A stretch of DNA of 64,000 nucleotides from a virus (taxonomy: Duplodnaviria; Caudoviricetes): positions 54,935-118,934 of IMG/VR virus record IMGVR_UViG_3300042358_000005; one strand, given 5' to 3'. Below, one piece after another: positions 9,669-61,927 of the stretch. Within the stretch, counting starts at the first letter, position 1. Every line of letters begins with the position of its first letter. The notes under the pieces were generated by a model. It searched no databases, was not told the DNA's origin, and was given only the letters and a program-made list of their open reading frames with translations. The position numbers were made by a program, and so were the translations under genes.

Positions 9669-12600
9669 ATGAGTGTAATTTGTGCTGCTAATCCTTGCCC
9701 AATATTATTAAGTGCATCCTGTGTATTCTACGAAGGACCTAACTTAATATGTACTGGTATAAATACTAACGAAACCCTTGAATCTGCATTAAAGAAAATT
9801 AATGATAGACTGTGTTCAGGTGCTGGTGCTGATGGAACTAGTGGTACTTCTGGTACCAGTGGAACGTCAGGTACCTCAGGCACTAGTGGAACATCCGCAA
9901 CTTCAGGCACTTCTGGTACCACTGGTACTAGTGGTAGTTCTGGTACTAGTGGTAGTTCTGGAACCTCAGGAACTACTGGAACCAGTGGTACATCTGCTAC
10001 ATCTGGAACTGCTGGAACTTCAGGAGTGCAAGGTGATAGATATAGAACAGTCTCTACAGATTGTTTTACATTAGGTAACTCAGGAACACTTATTGTTGAT
10101 ATAGGATTGTCATACACTCCTGGTCAATCAATTGTTATTGCATACAATGCATTTAATTATCAAGAATCTGTTGTTTTAACATACAATCCTTTTACAGGAG
10201 ATTTAACTTTCACTGCCCCTACATTAGTAGTTGGTGCTGGAAACTATTGTATATGGGATATAAACCTAGATGGAGCAACAGGAGGAGATGGATCTTCTGG
10301 TACTAGTGGAACAAGTGCTACAGCTGGTACAAGCGGTACAACAGGAACTAGTGGTACAACAGGAACTAGTGGTTCTAGTGGAACTTCTGGAAGCTCAGGT
10401 ACATCGGGTACTAGTGGCACATCTGGTAGTTCTGGTACTACTGGAACTTCAGGAACAACAGGAACAAGTGGCTCTGCAGGATCAAGTGGGTCAAGTGGAT
10501 TAAATGGATCTTCTGGAGCTGCTATAGCTAACTGGTTTGCAAGTTATTCTGATAATGGGAATCAACCTATAATAGCTGCAAATACACCTACACCAGTTAC
10601 ATACAATACAACAGAAATAGCAAATGGTATTATTCTAGATGTTAGTCAACAGATTAGATATCCACATGCTAACATATATGAATTTGGATATTCTCTACAA
10701 GTAGAAAAAACTGGTGGCCCAAGTACAGATATAGAGATATGGATTAGAAAGAATGGTAATAACATTGTTAGAACAGATTCTTATTTAAGTATTACAGCTG
10801 ATGGTGTAATACAACTACCATATGTATCTTTTATATTAGAACTATTAGCTAATGATTATTTAGAAATTATATTTTCTTCTACAAGTCAATATGTTCAATT
10901 AACAGCTAAGGCTGCTAAAACTTCTCCATACGCTGCACCAGCAGCACCTTCTGTTATTGTTAATACAAAACAAATAGGTGTAGGTGTAGGTAGTACATCA
11001 GGAACCTCTGGTACTAGTGCCACATCAGGTACTACAGGAACATCAGGTACCTCTGCAACATCAGGTACGTCTGCTACAAGTGGAACTGCTGGAACTAGTG
11101 GAACCTCTGCAACAAGTGGTACTTCAGGTACATCAGGAACTAATGGTTCTGCAGGAACTTCTGGTACTTCTGGAACGTCAGGTACTAGTGGTAGCTCAGG
11201 AACATCAGGAGTAGATGGTACATCAGGTACAAGTGGAATAGATGGATCTAATGGTACGTCAGGTACATCTGGTACAAGCGGTAGTTCTGGATCTTCATCA
11301 ACTAGTGGTACTAGTGGAACAAGTGGAACTACAGGTACATCAGGAAGTTCTGGAAGCTCAGGAAGTTCTGGAACAAGTGGAACTAGCGGTACTAATGGAT
11401 CAGCTGGAACCTCTGGTACATCTGCTACTAGTGGGACTTCTGGTACATCGGGTACCAGTGGGACTTCTGGAACATCAGCCACAAGTGGAACTAGTGGTAC
11501 TAGTGCAACTAGTGGGTCTTCAGGAAGCTCTGGATCCTCTGCTACATCTGGTACATCTGGATATTCTGGAGATAAATATGCTACATCATCTACTACATGT
11601 TACACTATACAAGCACCTCCTGGTACAGGTACTATTACTGTTGATACAGGGCTTGCTTATACATTAGGACAAAGTATAATTATAACTTATTCAGGTGATG
11701 CTTTACAACACAATGAAGCTATCGTTACAGGATATGATCCATTAACTGGTATATTAAACTTTCAAGTGACTGGTCAAACTGGTTCAGGATTATATTGCTC
11801 ATGGTTTGTTAATTTAGATGGTGCAACAGGTGGTGATGGATCAAATGGTACATCAGGTTCTAGTGGTTCTTCAGCTACAAGTGGCACATCTGGAACAACA
11901 GGAACCTCAGGTACTACAGGTACATCAGGATCTAGTGGAACAACTGGTACATCTGGAACAACTGGTACGTCTGGTACGTCTGGTACTAGTGGTACTACAG
12001 GTAGTTCTGGATCATCAGGTATTGATGGTACATCAGGAACTACAGGTACATCTGGTACATCTGCTACTAATGGTACAGGTGGAACTAGTGGAACAAGTGG
12101 AAGCTCTGGTTCTTCTTCTACATCTGGTACATCAGGATCTTCTTCTACGTCTGGTTCTTCAGGTTCTAGTGGAACAAATGGAACAGGTGGAACATCAGGA
12201 TCTAGTGGATCTTCTGGTAGTAGCGCAACTTCAGGTACATCAGGTACATCAGCAATTAATGGAACAGATGGAACTTCTGGAACATCAGGGTCTAGTGGTA
12301 CAGCTGGTACATCTGGAAGTACAGGAACAAGCGGAACTTCAGGAAGTAGTGGTTCTAGTGCAACATCAGGAACATCAGGTACCACAGGTACGTCTGGTTC
12401 AAGTGGAATTAATGGTTCTAATGGAACCTCTGGAACCTCTGGAACCTCTGGTGCAAGTGGTTTAGGATATACAAATCCTGTTGCTGGTCCAACATCTGGA
12501 ACTTGGGTAACAGATTGTTCTTTAGTAGGAACAAATATTTCTTTTTATATATCTGGATCAGAATTAGGTGCATACACTGTAGGTAATTTTGTAAATCTAA

Positions 12601-29981: not shown

Positions 29982-30145
29982 TGGCTACCACTGATAAAAA
30001 GTGGATGCAAAAAGTTTCAGCTTCTATCAAAAAACGTGGTACTGCTGGTAAATGTACACCAATCACTAAACCTGGTTGTACAGGAAAAGCTAAAGCTCTT
30101 GCTAAAACTTTTAAAAAGATTGCTAAATCTAATAAGAAGAAATAA
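29981..30145 (+). CDS. 54-aa basic protein; absent from ORF track
   Basis: MATTDKKWMQKVSASIKKRGTAGKCTPITKPGCTGKAKALAKTFKKIAKSNKKK; TAATG-coupled on both sides. Confidence 0.75.
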   Translation: MATTDKKWMQKVSASIKKRGTAGKCTPITKPGCTGKAKALAKTFKKIAKSNKKK

Positions 30146-32012: not shown

Positions 32013-32761
32013 TGTTTATTTATAAAATCTTTTAACATTTGCGCATAGTCTTTGTTCCAATGAGGATTCAAATGAACATCTCCTGTAGGGATAAGATTTT
32101 TTTGTCTTAAGCTTTCTATATATTCACTATGTCTTTGTATTATGTTAGGCTTATCTGCAGTGTCTGTACCTTGTCCAGATTGATGATAACCACGTCCACC
32201 CCACATATAGAACCAAGAACATTCTTCATTAGGAGGAGCAGCTAAAACCATTCCTTGTCTTCCTAGATTCTGTAGAGATATAGCTAATGTCATATCTCCT
32301 CCAGCATTCTGTATTGGACTTTTACCTATTTTTTCCCAAGCTTTCTTGCTATATACAATACCTGAATTACCAAGGCCCATTATTTTGGTTATATTAGGTT
32401 CATTATAGAACACACCTCTTTCCCAATGTAATATATTAGCATCAGGTCTCCAAAACTTAGCTATGTTAGAGAGGTGATTGCTTAGTGCTACATCATCATC
32501 ATCCCATACAGCAATAAGATCTCCAGAACAATGCTCTATAGCATAGTTTTCTTTATCCCCAATTGTAGGGAATGTTTCATCCATATTATAAATTTTTATT
32601 TCTGGATGATCATATACTAACTTTTGTAGAGGGTAGTCATTAACTATAATAAGTTCTTTCTTACCTGGATACTCTTGTAGGAGGAAACTTTGTATAGCTT
32701 CCTCCAGAGTATCTACTCTTCCATAAGTGATGCATTTGCAACTAATGAAAGGATATTCCAT
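32009..32761 (-). CDS. GT2-family glycosyltransferase
   Basis: ISCKCITYGR...SFLLQEY...ELIIVND...WDDDD; start reassigned to MEYPF. Confidence 0.85.
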   Translation of the reverse strand: MEYPFISCKCITYGRVDTLEEAIQSFLLQEYPGKKELIIVNDYPLQKLVYDHPEIKIYNMDETFPTIGDKENYAIEHCSGDLIAVWDDDDVALSNHLSNIAKFWRPDANILHWERGVFYNEPNITKIMGLGNSGIVYSKKAWEKIGKSPIQNAGGDMTLAISLQNLGRQGMVLAAPPNEECSWFYMWGGRGYHQSGQGTDTADKPNIIQRHSEYIESLRQKNLIPTGDVHLNPHWNKDYAQMLKDFINKQ

Positions 32762-32762
32762 A

Positions 32763-33044
32763 TTACCAGATTTGAATAATGTCAAATGGAGAAACTAACA
32801 ATACAGTTTCTTCTTCTGATAGAGGGATTAATGGAGCTTTTGATAAAGCTGCTGGATCTACAAGAACAAAATCACCCACCTTCACTTCCATGTTAGCTGT
32901 ACCAACACTATGAACTTTAAGTTTGTTCATCTTCTTCAACATTTCTTTCTCTAAAGATTCTTTTGTATTCTCATCTACGATAAGTTTGCTTTCTTCTTTC
33001 TTTGGTATCTCTAAGTAGATACGGTTTCCTAATAATCTTGCCAT
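32763..33044 (-). CDS. groES: GroES-like co-chaperonin
   Basis: LLGNRIYL...VHSVG...VKVGDFVLV...DII pattern; 93 aa. Confidence 0.65.
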   Translation of the reverse strand: MARLLGNRIYLEIPKKEESKLIVDENTKESLEKEMLKKMNKLKVHSVGTANMEVKVGDFVLVDPAALSKAPLIPLSEEETVLLVSPFDIIQIW

Positions 33045-36987: not shown

Positions 36988-37297
36988 TCTTATCTAGGTT
37001 TAAACTTAATAATCTATTCTCTACCTCGTATTCCACTTTTAGAATGAAGTTGATCTTCTCTTCAAGTTCTTGCTCTAGAATTCTTCCTGCAAATGGCATA
37101 AGCTCTTGGAGATTTGTTCTCACTCTTGTTAATCCATGTTGTGTAGTGATTTCACTATATAGGAATCCAGGAATCTGTGTAAGGTCATTGAATATCTCAT
37201 CAACATATGCAATTACAGATGGAATCTCTAATAACATACCAGATTCATGATCTTGATAGTCTTTATATTTTTCATTAAATTCTTTTGTTGTTCTCAT
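36971..37297 (-). CDS. Hypothetical protein
   Basis: ORF in the operon. Confidence 0.6.
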   Translation of the reverse strand: MRTTKEFNEKYKDYQDHESGMLLEIPSVIAYVDEIFNDLTQIPGFLYSEITTQHGLTRVRTNLQELMPFAGRILEQELEEKINFILKVEYEVENRLLSLNLDKNGNSI

Positions 37298-37346
37298 GGT
37301 TTTATAATTTTAGGGAGACAAATATACATCATCTCCCTGGTTATTC

Positions 37347-37730
37347 CTAATTAATTTCTTCTTCTTTTAGAGATAGTTTATTCTCTAATATTTCAAATGC
37401 AGCTTCTATAGCAAATAGCTCTGACTCTTTTCTTGTCTTCCAAGAATTAGTTGTTGCTTGTCTACCAATTATAACTGTAAATTCTTTACTAGGATATAAT
37501 AAAGTTTCTATCACTATATCATTCTCATCAAATACATCAAATAGCATTCTTGGATTGGCATCTATTAGTATTGCCATTTTCTCATTTTCTAACCCTTGTT
37601 TAAGTATATAGTCTTTGAAGTCTTGATCTATTGATTCATCATTCAATGAAGTGATCATTCTTTCTAAAAACCAATCTTTCATCACCTTAGCAGCAAATGG
37701 GTATTTTTCTAAAAGAGTTATTCCTTCCAT
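37347..37730 (-). CDS. Hypothetical protein
   Basis: ORF in the operon. Confidence 0.6.
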   Translation of the reverse strand: MEGITLLEKYPFAAKVMKDWFLERMITSLNDESIDQDFKDYILKQGLENEKMAILIDANPRMLFDVFDENDIVIETLLYPSKEFTVIIGRQATTNSWKTRKESELFAIEAAFEILENKLSLKEEEIN

Positions 37731-37935: not shown

Positions 37936-38495
37936 TGTTCTTTTATTTTATTAAGTTCTAAAATTTCTTTTTGTTCACTCCAACCTTCCCACACTTCAAA
38001 ATCTTGTCCAACTGTATCTTCAAGGTGTATTCCAAGTTTTTCTTCCCAGAAGTCTACAAGATCTTCAGCTTTGTTAAAGATTCTGTATTGTAAAGATATC
38101 TCATCCTTGTGTAGTCCATTTCTAACTATCTTTATTATTTTTGGGAATAATTTTTGAAAATCTGTAGATGTCTTAGAATATTTACCTTGTTTGATTAGTT
38201 GAAAATCCTTCTTATATTTTTCATTAAGTTGATAAACCACTACAACAAATCCATCTTCATAATCATAATCTTCTATAATTGTTTTGGTTCTTTCATATTC
38301 ATTATCTAAAAACTCTCTAAATTTATTTAGATCAGTAGGTTTAAATAACAAATATATAGAGTCTTTGTAATCATCTCCCTCTTTTCTTGCATCTTTAATA
38401 TATGCATTAATGAATCCATTTCCTCTAAGAGCATCTTTAGGTACCTTGAGGGTAGGTACCATAAAAATGCTAGTTATATTCTTTTTTATTTCCAT
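37914..38495 (-). CDS. Hypothetical protein adjacent to the exonuclease
   Basis: 193-aa ORF coupled to the nuclease gene. Confidence 0.65.
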   Translation of the reverse strand: MEIKKNITSIFMVPTLKVPKDALRGNGFINAYIKDARKEGDDYKDSIYLLFKPTDLNKFREFLDNEYERTKTIIEDYDYEDGFVVVVYQLNEKYKKDFQLIKQGKYSKTSTDFQKLFPKIIKIVRNGLHKDEISLQYRIFNKAEDLVDFWEEKLGIHLEDTVGQDFEVWEGWSEQKEILELNKIKEQCAIETS

Positions 38496-38496
38496 G

Positions 38497-39549
38497 TTAG
38501 CCTTTAATGTTTACTACTCCGTTAGATAAATAATTCTTGTGGCTTATGTTCCATGTGTTTGTAGATACACACCATTTCAATGCTGCAATCAAACTTCCTA
38601 CACCAGGATAAGTTCTTCCTTTGTGTACAAATCCGTGATATGCATCTTCCATATCATCAATATCTAATATATAGATCAATGGTTGATAGTAATTGGTGCT
38701 GTCACACACAATGAATTGTAAATAGTTTACTTGATATCCATAATAAGGACTATCTGGATTATTTGCTAGATGTATCATTGCATGAAAATACAAATAAGCT
38801 TGGATGTACGCTCTTCTGTACAAGTAATATTCTTCATAGAAGTTTTCTACAGACCATGTGCATTTAAGATCATATGGTTGAATAGTCTTTTCTTTGTGAT
38901 CTATCACCACTTTATCAAGCATAGATTTAAATGGATGTCCATCTATCTCATATCCTTCCACTTGCATCTGATCTATAATTTCATATCTAGAACTATTTAC
39001 AAGATTAACAATTGGTGCTGTTGTACTATTGATTCTAAGTTGTTCTACAATTTTCTCAGCAATAGATATCTCCATTGTATTCACTACAGTTAGATTTTGA
39101 GTTCTAACCTTCCTGATTTCATTATAATAGATTTCTGCATCACTTCCTATAAACTTACTTACAACTGCTTCATACTTAATCTTGAATCCAGAATCTCTAT
39201 ATGCAGCTTCTAACAATTCATTCATAGGTGTTTTAACTATACCAGATTCATCTGTAGCATCTCTTGTATTTCTATACAATGCTTCAACAAAATCTAACAT
39301 AAGTCCTGTTGGTGTAGATGCACAAGATGACATATAGAACTTCTCATCAAATAAATGAGGTTCCATAAGTAGGGTTTCAACTATTCTACCCATATTAGCT
39401 GCTGAGCTATCTTTATCTTCTACTTTCTCTTTGAGGAAATATTTCTTATAATACTTTTTTCTATCTTGAGAAAAATCTTTTAGGCTACTGGATGAATCCA
39501 TAAGCACTGCTCTGTATTGAGCTTCTGTTTTTGCTGTTCCTTTTATCAT
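38497..39549 (-). CDS. PD-(D/E)XK exonuclease (RecE/DUF3799-like)
   Basis: SSSSLK...GRIVE...FKSMLD...PYDLK...YIQAYLY. Confidence 0.8.
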   Translation of the reverse strand: MIKGTAKTEAQYRAVLMDSSSSLKDFSQDRKKYYKKYFLKEKVEDKDSSAANMGRIVETLLMEPHLFDEKFYMSSCASTPTGLMLDFVEALYRNTRDATDESGIVKTPMNELLEAAYRDSGFKIKYEAVVSKFIGSDAEIYYNEIRKVRTQNLTVVNTMEISIAEKIVEQLRINSTTAPIVNLVNSSRYEIIDQMQVEGYEIDGHPFKSMLDKVVIDHKEKTIQPYDLKCTWSVENFYEEYYLYRRAYIQAYLYFHAMIHLANNPDSPYYGYQVNYLQFIVCDSTNYYQPLIYILDIDDMEDAYHGFVHKGRTYPGVGSLIAALKWCVSTNTWNISHKNYLSNGVVNIKG

Positions 39550-54010: not shown

Positions 54011-55968
54011 TAGAAAAGATTTAATTGATTAGGGATGTACACTGTTTTGATTCTTCTACCTTCAGTAGCTATTTTTGTTACTAACCTATTGGCTTTCTCA
54101 ATGTAATACTCATAGTTTACATTATCAACTTTACTACCTTTTGGTAAGAAATTACAAACTTTACACACCCATTCACCTGCTTCTATCTGACTTACTGCAG
54201 CAGCTCTGGTTTGACACTCTGGATTCTTAATCTTAAAGATCTTGTCTCCAGTATTAGACACATAATAGCGTATGAGTTTATCATACACTGTTTTTTCACC
54301 TGTGGATCTATTGGTTCCTTCATAATGAAAGCTCCTACTTGCTTTCTGTCTTATACAGAAATCATACAAATTAGTATGTGCACGAATAGTTTCCTCTACA
54401 GGTGTACCATCAACAAAATAACGTTCAAGAGCTATAGGGACAACCCTTGCACTCTTGTTCTTATGGAGCTCAAAGTCAGTAAGGAAATCACCTTTCTTCT
54501 TAATCTCTCCATTGGTCATAATTGCTAAATAGTCATTCACTGTACTAAAGATAATCTTTGAATAATCAGTTCTCTCTAACTCATATTGAGTGAGGTTACT
54601 CCATGCTTCATTAAGACTATGCATTAATGGAATTAGGTCTTTCTTAATTCTGATAGTTACACCATCTGTATTAGCAGAGATCACATGTATGCCATTCAAT
54701 TCATATTGTTCAATAAGCATCATTAGACTAAGTTCACCAGTTATTGTGGTGAACATAGTTAACTGCCTATCAAATATCCATGATTGCATATCAGATGACT
54801 TACCATATACAGAGTTAACTGCAAGTTTAAGTGCTCCAACAATTCCTTTAATCTTCTTGTCCTTCTTAGCGAATGGTTTAAGCTCCAATCTCTTCTCAAA
54901 CATCTGTTTGTATCCCCTAAGGAATTCTTTACCTAAATGAGCAGGAAACTGCCCATTATTGATGATGATAGCAGGATAATAAGAACTAACATCCCAATCG
55001 ATTATCTCGTACTCTTCATCAGCCTCAAACACTTTAGGTTTGTTCTCGGTGTGAAGACCACCTTTCATAAAAGAATATATATTTCCATGGAAATCTATAT
55101 GCTCTTTGAAATCATCTTGAAGACCTAGTACGGTCTTCTTCATTTTCTTTAAGAACTCAGTTAGCTGAGGTGTCTCAAACACAACATACTTAGCAATGCA
55201 ATTCTTAAGATCTATATTCTTTCTGAAATATCCTTTTCTAGGAAGTTCTCTATACTCAATTCCTTTCTCTGAGCAATAATACTTCTTGATCATTTCATCC
55301 CCTATCTTACTATCTGAATAGTTCATACATGGAATACCAAACTCAGCTTCAATATCTTGTCTCAGCTCAACTTGGTTGTTTCCTTTGTACAATGGATGAT
55401 CACAATCACCCAGGGTTATCTTATAGAATTCATAAGTTGCATCCACATCATTATAACAATAGTCAATGGTCATTTCAACCTCTTCTTTTGTCATATCAAC
55501 CTTAGTATGGTGTATAGGCATCTCTTCAATGTTCTCAAGATCCATCTCAAACTCTAATCTCTTTAAGCTTACCATACGATTCTTATTGTTGTAGTGCATC
55601 AAAGCAAATAAGTCTATTATTTTAAAACTTAAATCACTTTCTCTATATTTTGGAAAAACTTCATAATTAGCATCATGTATTGTATCTTGAGCAACTTGTG
55701 AAATTCTTGCACATATTTCAAGACCAGATAATTCATGCCATTTATCATAATTCCTAAGAATATGCTCAATCACTTGACTATCGAATCTTAATCCATTATA
55801 TGTTACAAAATAATGATCGTTCTTTTCTTCAAAGTATCCTGCCATACGATCTATTGTGTTTTTCCATCTACTAACTTCAAACTTACGATACTTGTTAGTT
55901 TGAGGATCATAACAAACACATAAAAAGTATTCTGCCATTGTTTCTATATCTGTTACTATAACATTCAT
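54010..55968 (-). CDS. polB: Family B DNA polymerase
   Basis: Exonuclease motifs DIE / YNGLRFD / YCYND; polymerase motifs DVSSYYP, KLAVNSVYGK, NTDG. Confidence 0.95.
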   Translation of the reverse strand: MNVIVTDIETMAEYFLCVCYDPQTNKYRKFEVSRWKNTIDRMAGYFEEKNDHYFVTYNGLRFDSQVIEHILRNYDKWHELSGLEICARISQVAQDTIHDANYEVFPKYRESDLSFKIIDLFALMHYNNKNRMVSLKRLEFEMDLENIEEMPIHHTKVDMTKEEVEMTIDYCYNDVDATYEFYKITLGDCDHPLYKGNNQVELRQDIEAEFGIPCMNYSDSKIGDEMIKKYYCSEKGIEYRELPRKGYFRKNIDLKNCIAKYVVFETPQLTEFLKKMKKTVLGLQDDFKEHIDFHGNIYSFMKGGLHTENKPKVFEADEEYEIIDWDVSSYYPAIIINNGQFPAHLGKEFLRGYKQMFEKRLELKPFAKKDKKIKGIVGALKLAVNSVYGKSSDMQSWIFDRQLTMFTTITGELSLMMLIEQYELNGIHVISANTDGVTIRIKKDLIPLMHSLNEAWSNLTQYELERTDYSKIIFSTVNDYLAIMTNGEIKKKGDFLTDFELHKNKSARVVPIALERYFVDGTPVEETIRAHTNLYDFCIRQKASRSFHYEGTNRSTGEKTVYDKLIRYYVSNTGDKIFKIKNPECQTRAAAVSQIEAGEWVCKVCNFLPKGSKVDNVNYEYYIEKANRLVTKIATEGRRIKTVYIPNQLNLF

Positions 55969-56786: not shown

Positions 56787-57122
56787 TTATATCTTATTTT
56801 TTAAAAAGTTATTTATTTGGTCAAACAACCAACCTGTTAAATATGCCTCAGGTTCATCATTGTATCTATCTACCTCCATTGCGCAGTCTATGTATATAGA
56901 GTTCTTTAAATGCACTATTTCGTGTGCTATATTACTTAGATGAGTTGCGTCTGTAAACCCTATGATATAATGTCTATACTTACTTTCGTCTTTTAATGTA
57001 ACTGCTCCAAAATTAGATAGAGACTTTGTCTTATATTTTTTCTCAACATAAGACAAGTCTTTATCCAATATGATGGTTAACTTACAACAGTATATTGGTA
57101 TATTTATTGTGGTCTTTTCCAT
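56787..57122 (-). CDS. Small zincin-like metallopeptidase
   Basis: AHEIVH...DEPEAY; start set at the junction-repeat ATG (MEKTT). Confidence 0.7.
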   Translation of the reverse strand: MEKTTINIPIYCCKLTIILDKDLSYVEKKYKTKSLSNFGAVTLKDESKYRHYIIGFTDATHLSNIAHEIVHLKNSIYIDCAMEVDRYNDEPEAYLTGWLFDQINNFLKNKI

Positions 57123-57136
57123 AATCTTATTTGTTT

Positions 57137-57265
57137 TTAAATTAAAAATATTAAAAAAATTGTAAACCAAATAATCATTGGTTCTAATAACCCACCAAAC
57201 CAAAACCTATCGTAATATTCATAAAACTCATTTAACTGGTTTTTGATTTTTTTTAATGTTTTCAT
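57137..57265 (-). CDS. 42-aa peptide with C-terminal TM; absent from ORF track
   Basis: MKTLKKIKNQLNEFYEYYDRFWFGGLLEPMIIWFTIFLIFLI; starts and stops within junction repeats. Confidence 0.65.
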   Translation of the reverse strand: MKTLKKIKNQLNEFYEYYDRFWFGGLLEPMIIWFTIFLIFLI

Positions 57266-57269
57266 AATC

Positions 57270-57878
57270 TTATTTGTTTTTAAATTTAACAAACCAATCA
57301 TTAAAAGTAACTTCTATTCCATATTTATTTTCACAACAATAACCATAATAAAATGCTTTTTTCATATCTTGCTCACTATAACTTCTTTGTTTTTCTATAT
57401 CTAACTCATTAGCTATAAAATCAATTTCATCTTGTTTAGGTTCTTCTTTTGTAGGAATTTGTCTGTTATTTAATTTACAATAAATTAAATTCCACTCATC
57501 AATCATTTGTTTAGTTGCCTTTAAAAGATGAATTTCGTAATGTGAAAACATCAATGCAGTACTTCCTCTCGTAATAGGATTATCTTGGTTTACTTGTTTA
57601 CATTGTTTTATAATATAAACTTCTTCATAAGTAGGATTTTTCACAAACCATTCTAAAAACTCATCATCAATAGCTTGTACACCATCATCGATTAAGTCTT
57701 GGTCTGTTGTTAGGATGATTTTTTTATCAGTTTTAAAACTATTTGCTAACATACCATAAAGTTTTGTTTTAGTTTTAGTAATTGAATTATCTTCTTTGAA
57801 ATAACACCAATCTCCTTCTTTAATTTCTTCATCAGAAGTGATGTAGATTTTTTCTTGTAATACGTGTACGTTTTTCAT
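57270..57878 (-). CDS. Mosaic hypothetical protein (cassette)
   Basis: IYITSDEEIKEGDW...KIILTTD.DL..DGVQ.I.DEFLEWF...EEPKQ...RSYSEQD...FKNK. Confidence 0.75.
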   Translation of the reverse strand: MKNVHVLQEKIYITSDEEIKEGDWCYFKEDNSITKTKTKLYGMLANSFKTDKKIILTTDQDLIDDGVQAIDDEFLEWFVKNPTYEEVYIIKQCKQVNQDNPITRGSTALMFSHYEIHLLKATKQMIDEWNLIYCKLNNRQIPTKEEPKQDEIDFIANELDIEKQRSYSEQDMKKAFYYGYCCENKYGIEVTFNDWFVKFKNK

Positions 57879-57882
57879 AATC

Positions 57883-58086
57883 TTATTTGTTTTTAAATTG
57901 TTCGTTGTAGTATTGTTCTGCTTCTAACCATTCTGATTCAAGTGGTTTTTTAACTCTTGCATCAATAATCTGTTGCTTTTCCATTTCTTTGGCTTCTATT
58001 AGAATAGCTCTAATTAGAATTTGATTTCCGCTTGGAATTAAGTTTGCCAATCTATTTACTGCAAACTCTACTGCTGATTGTTTCAT
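57883..58086 (-). CDS. MKQxAVE / AKEMEKQQ family cassette protein
   Basis: MKQSAVEF...AKEMEKQQIIDA...AEQYYNEQFKNK; start set at the repeat ATG. Confidence 0.75.
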   Translation of the reverse strand: MKQSAVEFAVNRLANLIPSGNQILIRAILIEAKEMEKQQIIDARVKKPLESEWLEAEQYYNEQFKNK

Positions 58087-58119
58087 AATCTTATTTCTTT
58101 TTATATGTTTTATCAAATA

Positions 58120-58698
58120 GTTACTGGCTATGTTGCGAAACCTGATACCAAGTTTGAAAAATATTATCCGAAAAGATATTTATTTCAATTCCTAGTAATT
58201 TTAATCGTTTCACGCATTCCATTAAATGATTCCAGTCAGCATGAAAGTTTGGGAAATATTCTCTTTTTATAACTTGATTTCCTTCTTTCAAAACCCATCC
58301 ATTTGGGTATTTTTCTTTTTGTTCATTAAGCCATTTTTCTGCAATTACTTTTTGGCTTACAGTATCGTTATATCCGCAAGATTTAGGATGAAAACAAGAG
58401 CTTTCATCAGTTCCTACCATCCATTCAATTTCAGGTTCAAATCCTAAAAATTTTCCAATTTGGATATTTTTATCAATAATAGTTTTATAGCCATTTGATT
58501 CTTCAAATTCTCTAATAATTTTGTGGTCTAAATACATATTTTGTTTGTGGATTAAAAAACACAGCCAGTAACATATGCTACACAATAGCTGGGTTTAGGT
58601 TTAAATTTAAAGTTGGTTTTGCACCTTTTTAATATGTCATTATCCGAAGTCTGGGTGTGTGCTTGCCACAGCCATCGTGTAGCATCCGCCGTTATAGC
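58120..58698. mobile_element. Integron-like gene cassette with attC-like site
   Basis: GTTACTGGCTATGTT (58120-58134) is inverted relative to AACACAGCCAGTAAC (58558-58572). It is followed by a 17-bp inner IR (58575-58591 / 58669-58685) and GTTATAGC (58691-58698). Confidence 0.6.
58121..58537 (-). CDS. Hypothetical protein carried on the attC-like cassette
   Basis: MYLDHK...IGKFLG...FHADWNHLMEC; the stop TAA lies in GTAAC of the terminal IR. Confidence 0.7.
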   Translation of the reverse strand: MYLDHKIIREFEESNGYKTIIDKNIQIGKFLGFEPEIEWMVGTDESSCFHPKSCGYNDTVSQKVIAEKWLNEQKEKYPNGWVLKEGNQVIKREYFPNFHADWNHLMECVKRLKLLGIEINIFSDNIFQTWYQVSQHSQ

Positions 58699-58704
58699 TT
58701 ATGG

Positions 58705-59088
58705 CTATATTTCGTTTTCATCAGGAACTAATCTCAAATCAGAATCTAAAAACCACCATTTTTTCTGACTATAAATATCATTCATTTTAGAAACAAATTC
58801 TTCAATAATATCTGTTTTTTCTTTAAAACATAATTCCATATCGTGAGTATCATCATCAGGGTTTCCTTCTGTATCGTAATATCTATCAATAAGCCATTCA
58901 ATTACTTCTTCAGATGATATTGAAGCGGAATTAGATTCTTTGTTTGCTACACATAAATAACCGTGATGCGGTTCAAAATCTTCTTCCTCTAAATTGTCAA
59001 TGTTTTTTAATCCTTGCATTTCTAAATCTTCATATCCACAAAAAGTATAACCTTGTTTTAATGCTTCTTTTACTGTGATTGTATTCAT
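58705..59088 (-). CDS. Acidic hypothetical cassette protein
   Basis: Starts at the repeat ATG and ends next to the attC-like site. Confidence 0.7.
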   Translation of the reverse strand: MNTITVKEALKQGYTFCGYEDLEMQGLKNIDNLEEEDFEPHHGYLCVANKESNSASISSEEVIEWLIDRYYDTEGNPDDDTHDMELCFKEKTDIIEEFVSKMNDIYSQKKWWFLDSDLRLVPDENEI

Positions 59089-59102
59089 AATCTTATTTGT
59101 TT

Positions 59103-59231
59103 TTAAATTCTACAATCATTACATTCATCATTATCATCTAAGTCTGTATGAATATTACAATAACTTCCACAAGAAGGACATCTATCTTTGTGTTCAAACT
59201 CTGAACTCGGTTGACTATTTTTTGTTTTCAT
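59103..59231 (-). CDS. 42-aa CxxC...CxxC zinc-ribbon peptide; absent from ORF track
   Basis: MKTKNSQPSSEFEHKDRCPSCGSYCNIHTDLDDNDECNDCRI; stop lies inside the junction repeat. Confidence 0.6.
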   Translation of the reverse strand: MKTKNSQPSSEFEHKDRCPSCGSYCNIHTDLDDNDECNDCRI

Positions 59232-59676
59232 CTTTTACTATTATAAAGTTATTTATTTTCATCCATTTTAAAAACTGTGATACAGTCCAATCATCATTTG
59301 ATAGTTCTTGATGCTCTCCTTCTTCTTCAAACTGATTTATAAATCCTTGCAGATAATTGTACTTTTCAAGTGTTTCTTGTTTAGGTTCTTGTGGTCCACA
59401 GTCACAATATGTTGTATGACCACAATAGCATTTTGTTTGTTCTTCCATAACTTTTTTATTATTTAATCCTTTTATAAATGTATAACCTGTAGCAGTTGGT
59501 TTAAATCTTCTTTTATTCCATCCTTCAAAAATAGTTTCTACTAATGGATTCCATTGGCTTTCCCATACATTACCTGTTGTATTTTTAAGATGATTATATA
59601 TTTCTAAACAATCTTCTGCATCTTGTTTATATTCTGTTTTTAATTGCACTTGCAATCTATCCATTAATTTACCCAT
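59215..59676 (-). CDS. Mosaic hypothetical cassette protein (possibly two fused units)
   Basis: Internal MEEQTKCYCGHTTYCDCGP and EPKQE modules. Confidence 0.65.
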   Translation of the reverse strand: MGKLMDRLQVQLKTEYKQDAEDCLEIYNHLKNTTGNVWESQWNPLVETIFEGWNKRRFKPTATGYTFIKGLNNKKVMEEQTKCYCGHTTYCDCGPQEPKQETLEKYNYLQGFINQFEEEGEHQELSNDDWTVSQFLKWMKINNFIIVKDENKK

Positions 59677-59708
59677 AATTCTTATTTGTTTTTAAATTAT
59701 TACGTCTT

Positions 59709-60678: not shown

Positions 60679-61128
60679 TTAGTCTTCTTCTAATCCATCG
60701 TTTAATGTTACATCCCAATCATTAATATCTTCTTGATCAAGACTTAATACCACTTTATCCTCCATTATTACAGGAGTTTCTGTTTCTTCATCTATTTCTA
60801 TTGCTAGATAACCTTCCCATGCTCTTAGCACTAGATTAATATCATCTAGTGTGATGTCTCTTAGTTCATCTGTGTCTTCTCCTTCATCCCACCATCCAAT
60901 CTCTTCATCTGTAGCAAGAACATTACCATCTTCATCAATAATTAATAGTTCTACTGGTGCACCATGTTTAGCCATAAATTCATCTATGTCTTCAGGAATC
61001 TCTTCAAGTTGCCATAGTTCAACATATGGTTCAACAACACCAATAAATATCCTATTGACAAAGAGCATACCCTCCTCTAATTCAAGAGGAAGATAGCTTT
61101 TTAATACAATTTCTGCTGATGACCACAT
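60679..61128 (-). CDS. Highly acidic hypothetical protein
   Basis: 149 aa, Asp/Glu-rich. Confidence 0.65.
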   Translation of the reverse strand: MWSSAEIVLKSYLPLELEEGMLFVNRIFIGVVEPYVELWQLEEIPEDIDEFMAKHGAPVELLIIDEDGNVLATDEEIGWWDEGEDTDELRDITLDDINLVLRAWEGYLAIEIDEETETPVIMEDKVVLSLDQEDINDWDVTLNDGLEED

Positions 61129-61484
61129 TAGAAATCTCTTTTAGGTGCTGGTTCAGTGATTTGATACACACTATGTCCACTAGATAGTCTCAATAATATA
61201 TGAAGCTGTTCAGCTTCTAAATAGTCTATCTCTTTCTTTGAGTTAACACCAATGATTTCTATACCACTACCAGTATCTACTAGTTGCATAGCAACTGTCT
61301 TTCTAACATTATCAGCCCATTCAAAATCATCACTATAATATAGTGTATGAACTGTAGCTTCTTTTGTAGCTTCTAGTTTATGATAATCATATTCATGTGT
61401 ACCATTAATATACACTTCTTCTCTGTATAACACATCACTTGTGTTATCAATTACATCTTGTATTTCTTTCTTTAATGTTGCCAT
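61128..61484 (-). CDS. Hypothetical protein
   Basis: 118-aa ORF. Confidence 0.65.
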   Translation of the reverse strand: MATLKKEIQDVIDNTSDVLYREEVYINGTHEYDYHKLEATKEATVHTLYYSDDFEWADNVRKTVAMQLVDTGSGIEIIGVNSKKEIDYLEAEQLHILLRLSSGHSVYQITEPAPKRDF

Positions 61485-61489
61485 GTTAT

Positions 61490-61927
61490 TTATTTTTTAC
61501 GATTATTACGCATTAGTTCTCCCTTTGAATGTACACCTCTACTATATTTATTTACAATTATCTTATTAGTACCACTAGTGAAATTCTTTTCTTTTTTATC
61601 TAATCCTGTTAGTCTCTTTCTTTCAACTTCAGATAGTTCATTGTACTGATAGCTATCTAATAAATTCATTTGACCGTTTATATCTTTCCATTCTTCAGAT
61701 GTAACTTTTCCTGGCTTAGCTATTCTAAACTCAGAAGGTATGTTTAATTCATCAAGAAGATCATCAATAAAAGATATTCTATCACTATTGAAATAATAAT
61801 ACCTCAATAGTGATTTACCTCTACTGTGCTGAGAGTCTAATACATTCTGCACTGTAAGATCATGATACTGTCCAAACTTAAGAGTTGACTTTCTAGTCAA
61901 GGTTCTTAGTAGAGTTACATCAGACAT
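61490..61927 (-). CDS. Hypothetical protein
   Basis: LRTLTRKSTLKFGQY motif. Confidence 0.65.
   Translation of the reverse strand: MSDVTLLRTLTRKSTLKFGQYHDLTVQNVLDSQHSRGKSLLRYYYFNSDRISFIDDLLDELNIPSEFRIAKPGKVTSEEWKDINGQMNLLDSYQYNELSEVERKRLTGLDKKEKNFTSGTNKIIVNKYSRGVHSKGELMRNNRKK

Follow-up and report, generated by a model that had tools for sequence, protein, structure and literature searches.

A probable integron-like gene cassette with an asymmetric hairpin site in the genome of a large phage

The locus described here raises a question: is the 126-nt hairpin between two small genes of a Caudoviricetes genome an attC site from a host integron, a recombination site of another kind, or a structure that acts in RNA, and how did it and the gene behind it come to be there? 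The window is a 64,000-nucleotide stretch, positions 54,935 to 118,934 of the IMG/VR record IMGVR_UViG_3300042358_000005. Genes around the element all lie on the minus strand, and a 167-nt gap (58538-58704) separates gene A from gene B (Table 1). An initial annotation read the element as an attC-like cassette site. We consider it likely that 58121-58691 is one gene cassette of an integron-like recombination system, working through single-strand hairpins and found in Flavobacterium chromosomes, prophages and phages. The direct support for such a system consists of sequence patterns, from which we infer the recombination itself.

The sequence features on which that annotation was built are all present. 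They comprise GCCAGTAAC at 58564-58572, GTTATAGC at 58691-58698, an inner inverted repeat (58575-58591 with 58669-58685) paired at 15 of 17 positions, and a 15-nt stretch at 58120-58134 that is complementary to 58558-58572 at 14 of 15. The L stem, 17 bp long, has two G.T pairs and no bulge, and all three mismatches of the inverted repeat and the 15-nt complement are G.T wobbles on the minus (gene-sense) strand, whose plus-strand counterparts are A.C mismatches. Extrahelical bases, which the annotation had proposed to seek by folding, are absent from the 17-bp stem. Compared with the attC consensus RYYYAAC (R'') / GTTRRRY (R'), the plus-strand boxes CAGTAAC / GTTATAG fit only at the triplets and at one or two further positions. 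The crossover point would lie within or adjoining the TAAC of the 5' half of the R box. The hairpin (58569-58694) is the sole site of its kind in the 118,934-bp genome, where a scan for the pattern TAACG-spacer-stem (at least 9 bp)...TGTTA returned one site, against a mean of 0.37 per shuffle in a control of 30 shuffles.

Table 1. Coordinates of the hairpin element, the two genes beside it and their boxes, numbered within the window.
Feature	Position	Strand	Remark
Gene A leader, 15 nt	59089-59103	-	Arrived with captured block; left edge of homology (comparison with relatives)
Gene A, cassette gene, 127 aa	58705-59088	-	Without its own hairpin here
Far box of gene A	58695-58710	-	Includes TAG stop, 58705-58707; also in other phages
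R box, 5' half	58690-58694	-	TAACG on minus strand
Spacer, 5' side	58686-58689	-	4 nt, unpaired
L stem, 5' arm	58669-58685	-	
Terminal loop, 77 nt	58592-58668	-	Motifs CTTCGG, A-rich run, TTTAAATTAA
L stem, 3' arm	58575-58591	-	17-bp stem
Spacer, 3' side	58574	-	1 nt
R box, 3' half	58569-58573	-	TGTTA on minus strand
Near box, 11 nt	58558-58568	-	Partner of far box
A-rich leader	58538-58557	-	Near box to gene B start codon; unlike the window's own junction repeat
Gene B, cassette cargo, 138 aa	58121-58537	-	
Far box, 11 nt	58124-58134	-	Pairs with near box: 10 Watson-Crick pairs and 1 G.T
TAAC at downstream cassette boundary	58120-58123	-	Folding strand; in related loci homology breaks right after TAAC

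ARAGORN detects no tRNA and no tmRNA, and inspection by eye saw no Bacteroidota-type promoter (TTTG / TAnnTTTG) within the element. A small ORF within the hairpin was ruled out, as no start codon stands there in other families. As a separate observation, about 10 of 27 loci (L001, L005, L007, L009, L011, L017, L020, L022, L028 and L030) have an ATG in the 3' foot of the hairpin (CATATGTTAC) that shares the reading frame of the gene downstream and would give that gene a leader of the MLPVV- or MLLAV-type. In the window this ATG is out of frame, and the open frame extends to a TTG at 58585 inside the stem (58121-58585).

The annotation had suggested a search of Bacteroidota genomes and phages; searches of phages and Flavobacterium genomes do find the element elsewhere, and with 80-94% identity in many other phages and a Flavobacterium chromosome a chance match is excluded. 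A 19-mer of the element occurs once each in 27 IMG/VR contigs, and the element is present in Flavobacterium genomes too. The F. psychrophilum phages FPSV-D15 (MK764437), D35 and D17 have intergenic DNA 80% identical to it, in flanks that do not match. The best match, 94% over 145 nt, lies in the chromosome of Flavobacterium caseinilyticum and spans exactly 58696-58552; conservation ends abruptly at GTTA on one side.

Where the relatives are temperate phage loci, and in one prophage, the hairpins stand in one-way arrays of 3-8, alternating with small ORFs that encode unrelated small proteins. General alignment with MAFFT lost the stem register between families, and in place of a general covariance model we used our own scan for pattern plus pairing, which collected 76 unique sites in 42 sequence families. 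Since the scan required TAACG and TGTTA, the constancy of these boxes is better judged from an alignment of 32 sites, in which both are invariant. Most of the 76 sites have a spacer of 3-4 nt on one side and of 0-1 nt on the other, and the sites fall into length classes of 71-73, 83-86 and 116-131 nt. The stems (9-21 bp) covary, and in most families they run uninterrupted for 17-21 bp. With one representative per family, stems are 92% paired, with 71 G.T against 13 A.C oppositions, a count biased within the seed stem because the scan accepted G.T as a pair. Pairing is good on one strand only, and this asymmetry comes from the G.T pairs, not from extrahelical bases. The loop motifs of the window's hairpin (CTTCGG, the A-rich run and TTTAAATTAA) are common to otherwise unrelated families and persist above entirely different stems, a conservation that points to a further function for the loop, perhaps protein binding or a role in RNA.

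Variants of this grammar occur. The R box is sometimes CAAC/GTTG in place of TAAC/GTTA, a compensatory change found at both ends of the same cassette (G002 37035-37400, L150:11992-12118, L015 and L018). The virulent, published Polaribacter phage P12002L (L152) brackets DNA methyltransferase and Mom-like genes with the same grammar; its hairpins lie at 30005-30060, 32224-32280, 32798-32924, 38036-38089, 38880-38935 and 39119-39244, and include a short class of 54-57 nt. One cassette protein (L021:942-1253) has a sub-threshold match to an Acb2/Tad1 hairpin domain (23.3 bits, cut-off 27), a hint that some cassettes may carry anti-defence genes.

A second layer of pairing ties each hairpin to the end of the gene that follows it. 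The near box, directly behind the hairpin on the gene-sense strand, is complementary to a far box at the stop of the next gene, 233-964 nt away, in nearly every locus, and the two boxes vary between loci yet covary. Across the sites, 37 of 76 near boxes pair 10/10 with the box at a downstream TAAC, against 4.6% for permuted boxes, and pairing with the adjacent upstream box is typically 3-6/10. The complementarity that the annotation saw between the start of the cassette and the box beside the hairpin is found again, and covaries, in almost all related loci. Far boxes follow one set format, TAR-YAT-6 nt-TAAC, with the stop codon as part of it (all arrays, e.g. L021:756-4638); in the window the TAA stop of gene B (58121-58123) lies inside the boundary TAAC, and the last four codons of gene B are readthrough of a mutated first stop of the usual format. 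A G.T wobble also recurs at a fixed near/far position, the 11th pair when numbering starts at the G of GTTA, while the rest covaries. One nested case was noticed (L035:4128-5863), in which a near box finds its partner in the far box lying two cassettes further downstream, and the boxes on either side of the enclosed hairpin are complementary to one another; simple one-cassette moves do not explain this arrangement.

Comparison of loci shows what moves. The same gene and hairpin appear in three to four different flanks, with the break at TAAC on both sides. Gene A, traced by protein similarity alone, has one upstream hairpin family in three loci where both flanks differ; since it keeps this hairpin while its surroundings change, the mobile unit is a hairpin with the gene behind it. 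The unit comprises hairpin, near box, gene and far box, and breaks at the TAAC of the folding strand, the G/TTA of the plus strand. The limits first proposed for the cassette, from about 58120 to G/TTA at 58691, coincide with this unit moving between genomes. FPSV-D15 and a provirus hold blocks that are 98-100% identical in permuted order, A-B-C-D-x-E in one and A-D-y-C-B-E in the other (block letters, not the genes of the window). Nine of the ten array breakpoints between these two genomes lie at TAAC(G), whereas 7.7% of random positions lie that close, and the joints share just 5-6 nt. The annotation had looked to G/TT for breakpoints, and between near-identical phages the block boundaries do fall at TAAC|G, resolved to 4-6 nt. 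The permutation pattern indicates an exchange that would be site-specific and not homologous.

In the window, the cassette is preceded by a piece of a second one. Relatives of gene A are 93-94% identical, and they are homologous to the window between 59103 and 58691 but no further. Gene A comes in those relatives with a hairpin and a near box of its own, both missing from the window, so that the block here consists of gene A with its far box and then the complete cassette of gene B. The left edge of the block lies in an A-rich leader that resembles the junction repeat of the window; on sequence grounds, therefore, the captured block has one junction or more, that at about 59103, which did not arise at a recombination site. 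The captured block also interrupts the junction-repeat pattern, because the leader of gene B differs from it. Gene A matches no family. Gene B has no match in Pfam or PHROGs and no relatives in IMG/VR. An empty site was sought through gene D in close relatives of the window phage, and nothing above 57% identity was found. Public lake-water metagenome reads contain the window phage, and pieces of contigs break off at 58567-58598 and at 58691, which is what a repeat that branches the assembly would cause; the reads yield no clean joint across the cassette, hence no empty site. One metagenome joint, from 57995 to 59085, was set aside with just 25 nt on one side.

The array in which the block sits has its own organization. 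From 57114 to 59701 it uses a stop/start junction repeat, with the TAA of the previous gene 4 nt before the next ATG, and copies of the repeat lie at 57114, 57257, 57870, 58078, 59080 and 59680. Gene C (57883-58086), directly after the cassette, has three paralogues of 38-46% identity elsewhere in the window's array, with copies near 60720-61290 and 61780-61890.

Because the phage hairpins fold on the gene-sense strand, a reading in RNA must be weighed against one in DNA. The hairpin and the near/far helices might act mainly in RNA, for instance by flanking every cistron of a polycistronic early transcript, where they would be sites of RNase III processing or would stabilise the message, with the shuffling a by-product. 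We regard this as improbable. It would account well for the phages, where the folding strand is the mRNA strand and the mismatches become G.U, for RNA folds whose z-score is -2.8 on the minus strand and -0.5 on the plus strand, for conserved loop motifs that include CUUCGG, and for helices that bracket whole genes in the manner of rRNA processing stems. It fares poorly with the two chromosomal arrays of Flavobacterium, in which these asymmetric hairpins fold on the strand that does not carry the ORFs, each ORF followed by its hairpin as in classical integrons. Since the hairpins there are antisense, the asymmetry tracks the DNA site and not the transcript, and this favours what would be a DNA-level site over an RNA element in a test of strand independence that comprises two chromosomal loci. 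Also against a primary RNA role are the exchange breakpoints, nearly all at TAAC with 5-6 nt shared, the tyrosine recombinase that adjoins arrays, and Rfam, which at gathering and E-value thresholds gave no credible match to any family in the window or in four array loci. A fold of the excised circle, in which the window's far box is joined to its hairpin, stacks an R helix of 15-16 bp under the L stem and reaches -26.9 kcal/mol, against -18.8 in situ (minus strand, DNA parameters); the complementary strand is weaker. An added RNA role alongside the preferred DNA site is possible.

In three phages (G001, G002 and L007) the folding strand carries a gene for a Xer-like recombinase of 266-276 aa, which begins about 65 nt beyond the last TAAC. 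We take this to be the position that intI occupies relative to the bottom strand of attC. The stretch of about 65 nt from that TAAC to the start codon, where an integron would have its attI, is conserved between G001 and G002. A 347-aa homologue (38% identity, E = 2e-50) adjoins the chromosomal arrays, which lie downstream of it in two Flavobacterium genomes (L149:9735-16795 and L150:9732-13137); in the second of these, a near-palindrome was seen after the recombinase-proximal TAAC (about 10840-10880). Against the integron integrase model TIGR02249, every protein of the phages and of three Flavobacterium genomes scores below the cut-off. The best hits have nothing at model positions 180-238 and stand nearer to the archaeal XerA, their closest solved relative; the roughly 40 missing positions are presumably where the IntI-specific domain lies. 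The link with a recombinase is not universal. The only integrase of FPSV-D15 and of the phage G004 is one of 400 aa, which in FPSV-D15 lies about 7 kb away from the array; the phage G003 has no recombinase, and no protein family is common to all five array-bearing phages. The annotation had recommended looking for a tyrosine recombinase elsewhere on the contig; none was found in the genome of the window phage, nor was a second hairpin site, and with neither in the genome the window copy may be inert.

These results bear on two further alternatives. It is improbable that the element is a canonical attC site, recognised by a classical IntI of the host and left as a stray piece of an integron or CALIN. 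Its AAC/GTT triplets, R and L boxes, unpaired spacer, variable loop and 126-nt length all suit such a site, as does the complementarity of the cassette's own start to the box on the hairpin side, and HattCI predicted a hairpin of the same grammar in Polaribacter phage P12002L as attC (PMC9892861). Of six sites tested, however, that P12002L site alone yielded no verified IntI1 recombinants (PMC9892861), and IntegronFinder surveys find almost no integrons in Bacteroidetes (PMC9024848). The stem without extrahelical bases also speaks against a canonical site, as do phages and three Flavobacterium genomes in which no protein reaches the integron-integrase cut-off and the best hits stand nearer to XerA. 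The host integron or CALIN origin that the annotation had proposed stands as to an integron-like cassette, and gives way as to IntI, to extrahelical bases and to the gene, which lies on the folding strand. Its view of the host as source of the gene needs widening, since temperate phages or prophages are as likely to be the donors as host chromosomes are. An IS200/IS605-type single-strand transposon, or another HUH-enzyme element like it that targets TTAC, is very unlikely. Such an element would explain why the hairpin adjoins a constant tetranucleotide (GTTAC / TAAC), why folding is strand-specific and why insertion takes place at a short motif; yet the Y1 HUH transposase (PF01797) is absent from the five array-bearing phages, each unit has a single hairpin and not two subterminal ones, and the arrays are ordered, one-way and adjoined by a tyrosine recombinase.

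The first reading is probably right in substance: the element is an integron-like cassette of a non-canonical kind, which the phage probably picked up along with the gene before it. As to how the preferred system might work, a tyrosine recombinase would cut the folded strand in the AAC triplet and release a circle, in which the far box would meet the hairpin and pair with the near box in an R helix of 15-16 bp; the circle would then insert at the TAAC of another hairpin. The best candidate for the enzyme is the short Xer-like recombinase that adjoins arrays. The window copy is most likely a captured passenger, taken together with gene A from the array of a temperate phage or prophage, the left edge of the block having been joined in the A-rich leader by recombination that was not site-specific. 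With an enzyme provided by the host or by a prophage in the same cell, the site in the window could still serve as a point of entry.

More broadly, we lean slightly towards the view that Flavobacteriia and their viruses run a parallel, IntI-free integron-like system, in which short Xer-like recombinases shuffle cassettes through folded hairpins. With the same modest preference, the system would extend over chromosomes, prophages and virulent phages, the phage hairpin would also be part of the mRNA, and the cassettes would make up a common stock of accessory genes, possibly with anti-defence genes among them. Integrons are regarded as mainly proteobacterial and are defined by IntI. If the proposal is true, it widens the known range of single-strand, structure-specific recombination, accounts for the build-up of hypervariable early regions in Flavobacterium phages, and marks a pool of small unknown genes moving between viruses and hosts. 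Phages of the fish pathogen F. psychrophilum, in biocontrol trials, would draw on that pool. What the window adds is a large phage without a recombinase that has picked up a piece of such an array.

The system is largely undescribed, and the cassette in the window is a non-canonical integron-like one; none of the papers searched treats the near/far boxes, the Flavobacterium phage arrays or the Xer-like recombinase. A close precedent is the set of phage CALINs of Qi et al. 2023, attC-like sites without an integrase in virulent phages, of which 17 were found in 10,705 phage genomes, with Flavobacterium phages unmentioned (PMC9892861). One site of that survey, P12002L_attC1, has exactly the grammar of the window, on the sense strand between two methyltransferase genes, although the near/far boxes and the Xer-like recombinase do not figure there (PMC9892861). 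Unlike a CALIN, with two or more clustered attC sites and no integrase, the window genome has one site.

Two other systems share single traits with the proposed one. In the window phage and its relatives, as with PeSL cassettes and morons, small accessory genes with flanking signals of their own are inserted between phage genes and shuffled among phages. The PeSL cassettes of T4-type phages and the lambdoid "morons" rely on homologous recombination between conserved regulatory repeats, whereas the repeats here differ in sequence and the joints share 5-6 nt. XerCD, in phages of the CTX type, integrates a whole phage at dif from folded single-stranded DNA. The action of a Xer-family recombinase on a hairpin from one DNA strand, proposed here, is like that process, which, in contrast to this one, builds no gene-cassette arrays.

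A close comparison is also to be made with integrons themselves. An attC site has R and L boxes, unpaired spacers, extrahelical bases, a variable loop of 20-100 nt and AAC/GTT triplets (Cury et al., PMC4889954), and almost no integrons are found in Bacteroidetes with IntegronFinder 2 (PMC9024848). Like integron cassettes with their attC sites, the cassettes described here fold on one strand into a hairpin that shows conserved AAC/GTT triplets, R and L boxes, an unpaired spacer and a variable loop (the 126 nt of the window's site falling within the attC range of about 57-141 bp), have complementary ends of their own, and are exchanged at a conserved triplet. As in integrons, sedentary chromosomal ones included, they form one-way arrays of small, mostly unknown genes, and in three phages the folding strand carries a recombinase gene where the array ends. 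There are differences too. The recombinase is short and Xer-like and lacks the IntI-specific insert; the stems are long (9-21 bp) and mostly without extrahelical bases; the near and far boxes lengthen the pairing of the R box to 15-16 bp; part of the loop is conserved from family to family; and in the phages the cassette gene stands on the folding strand, behind its hairpin.
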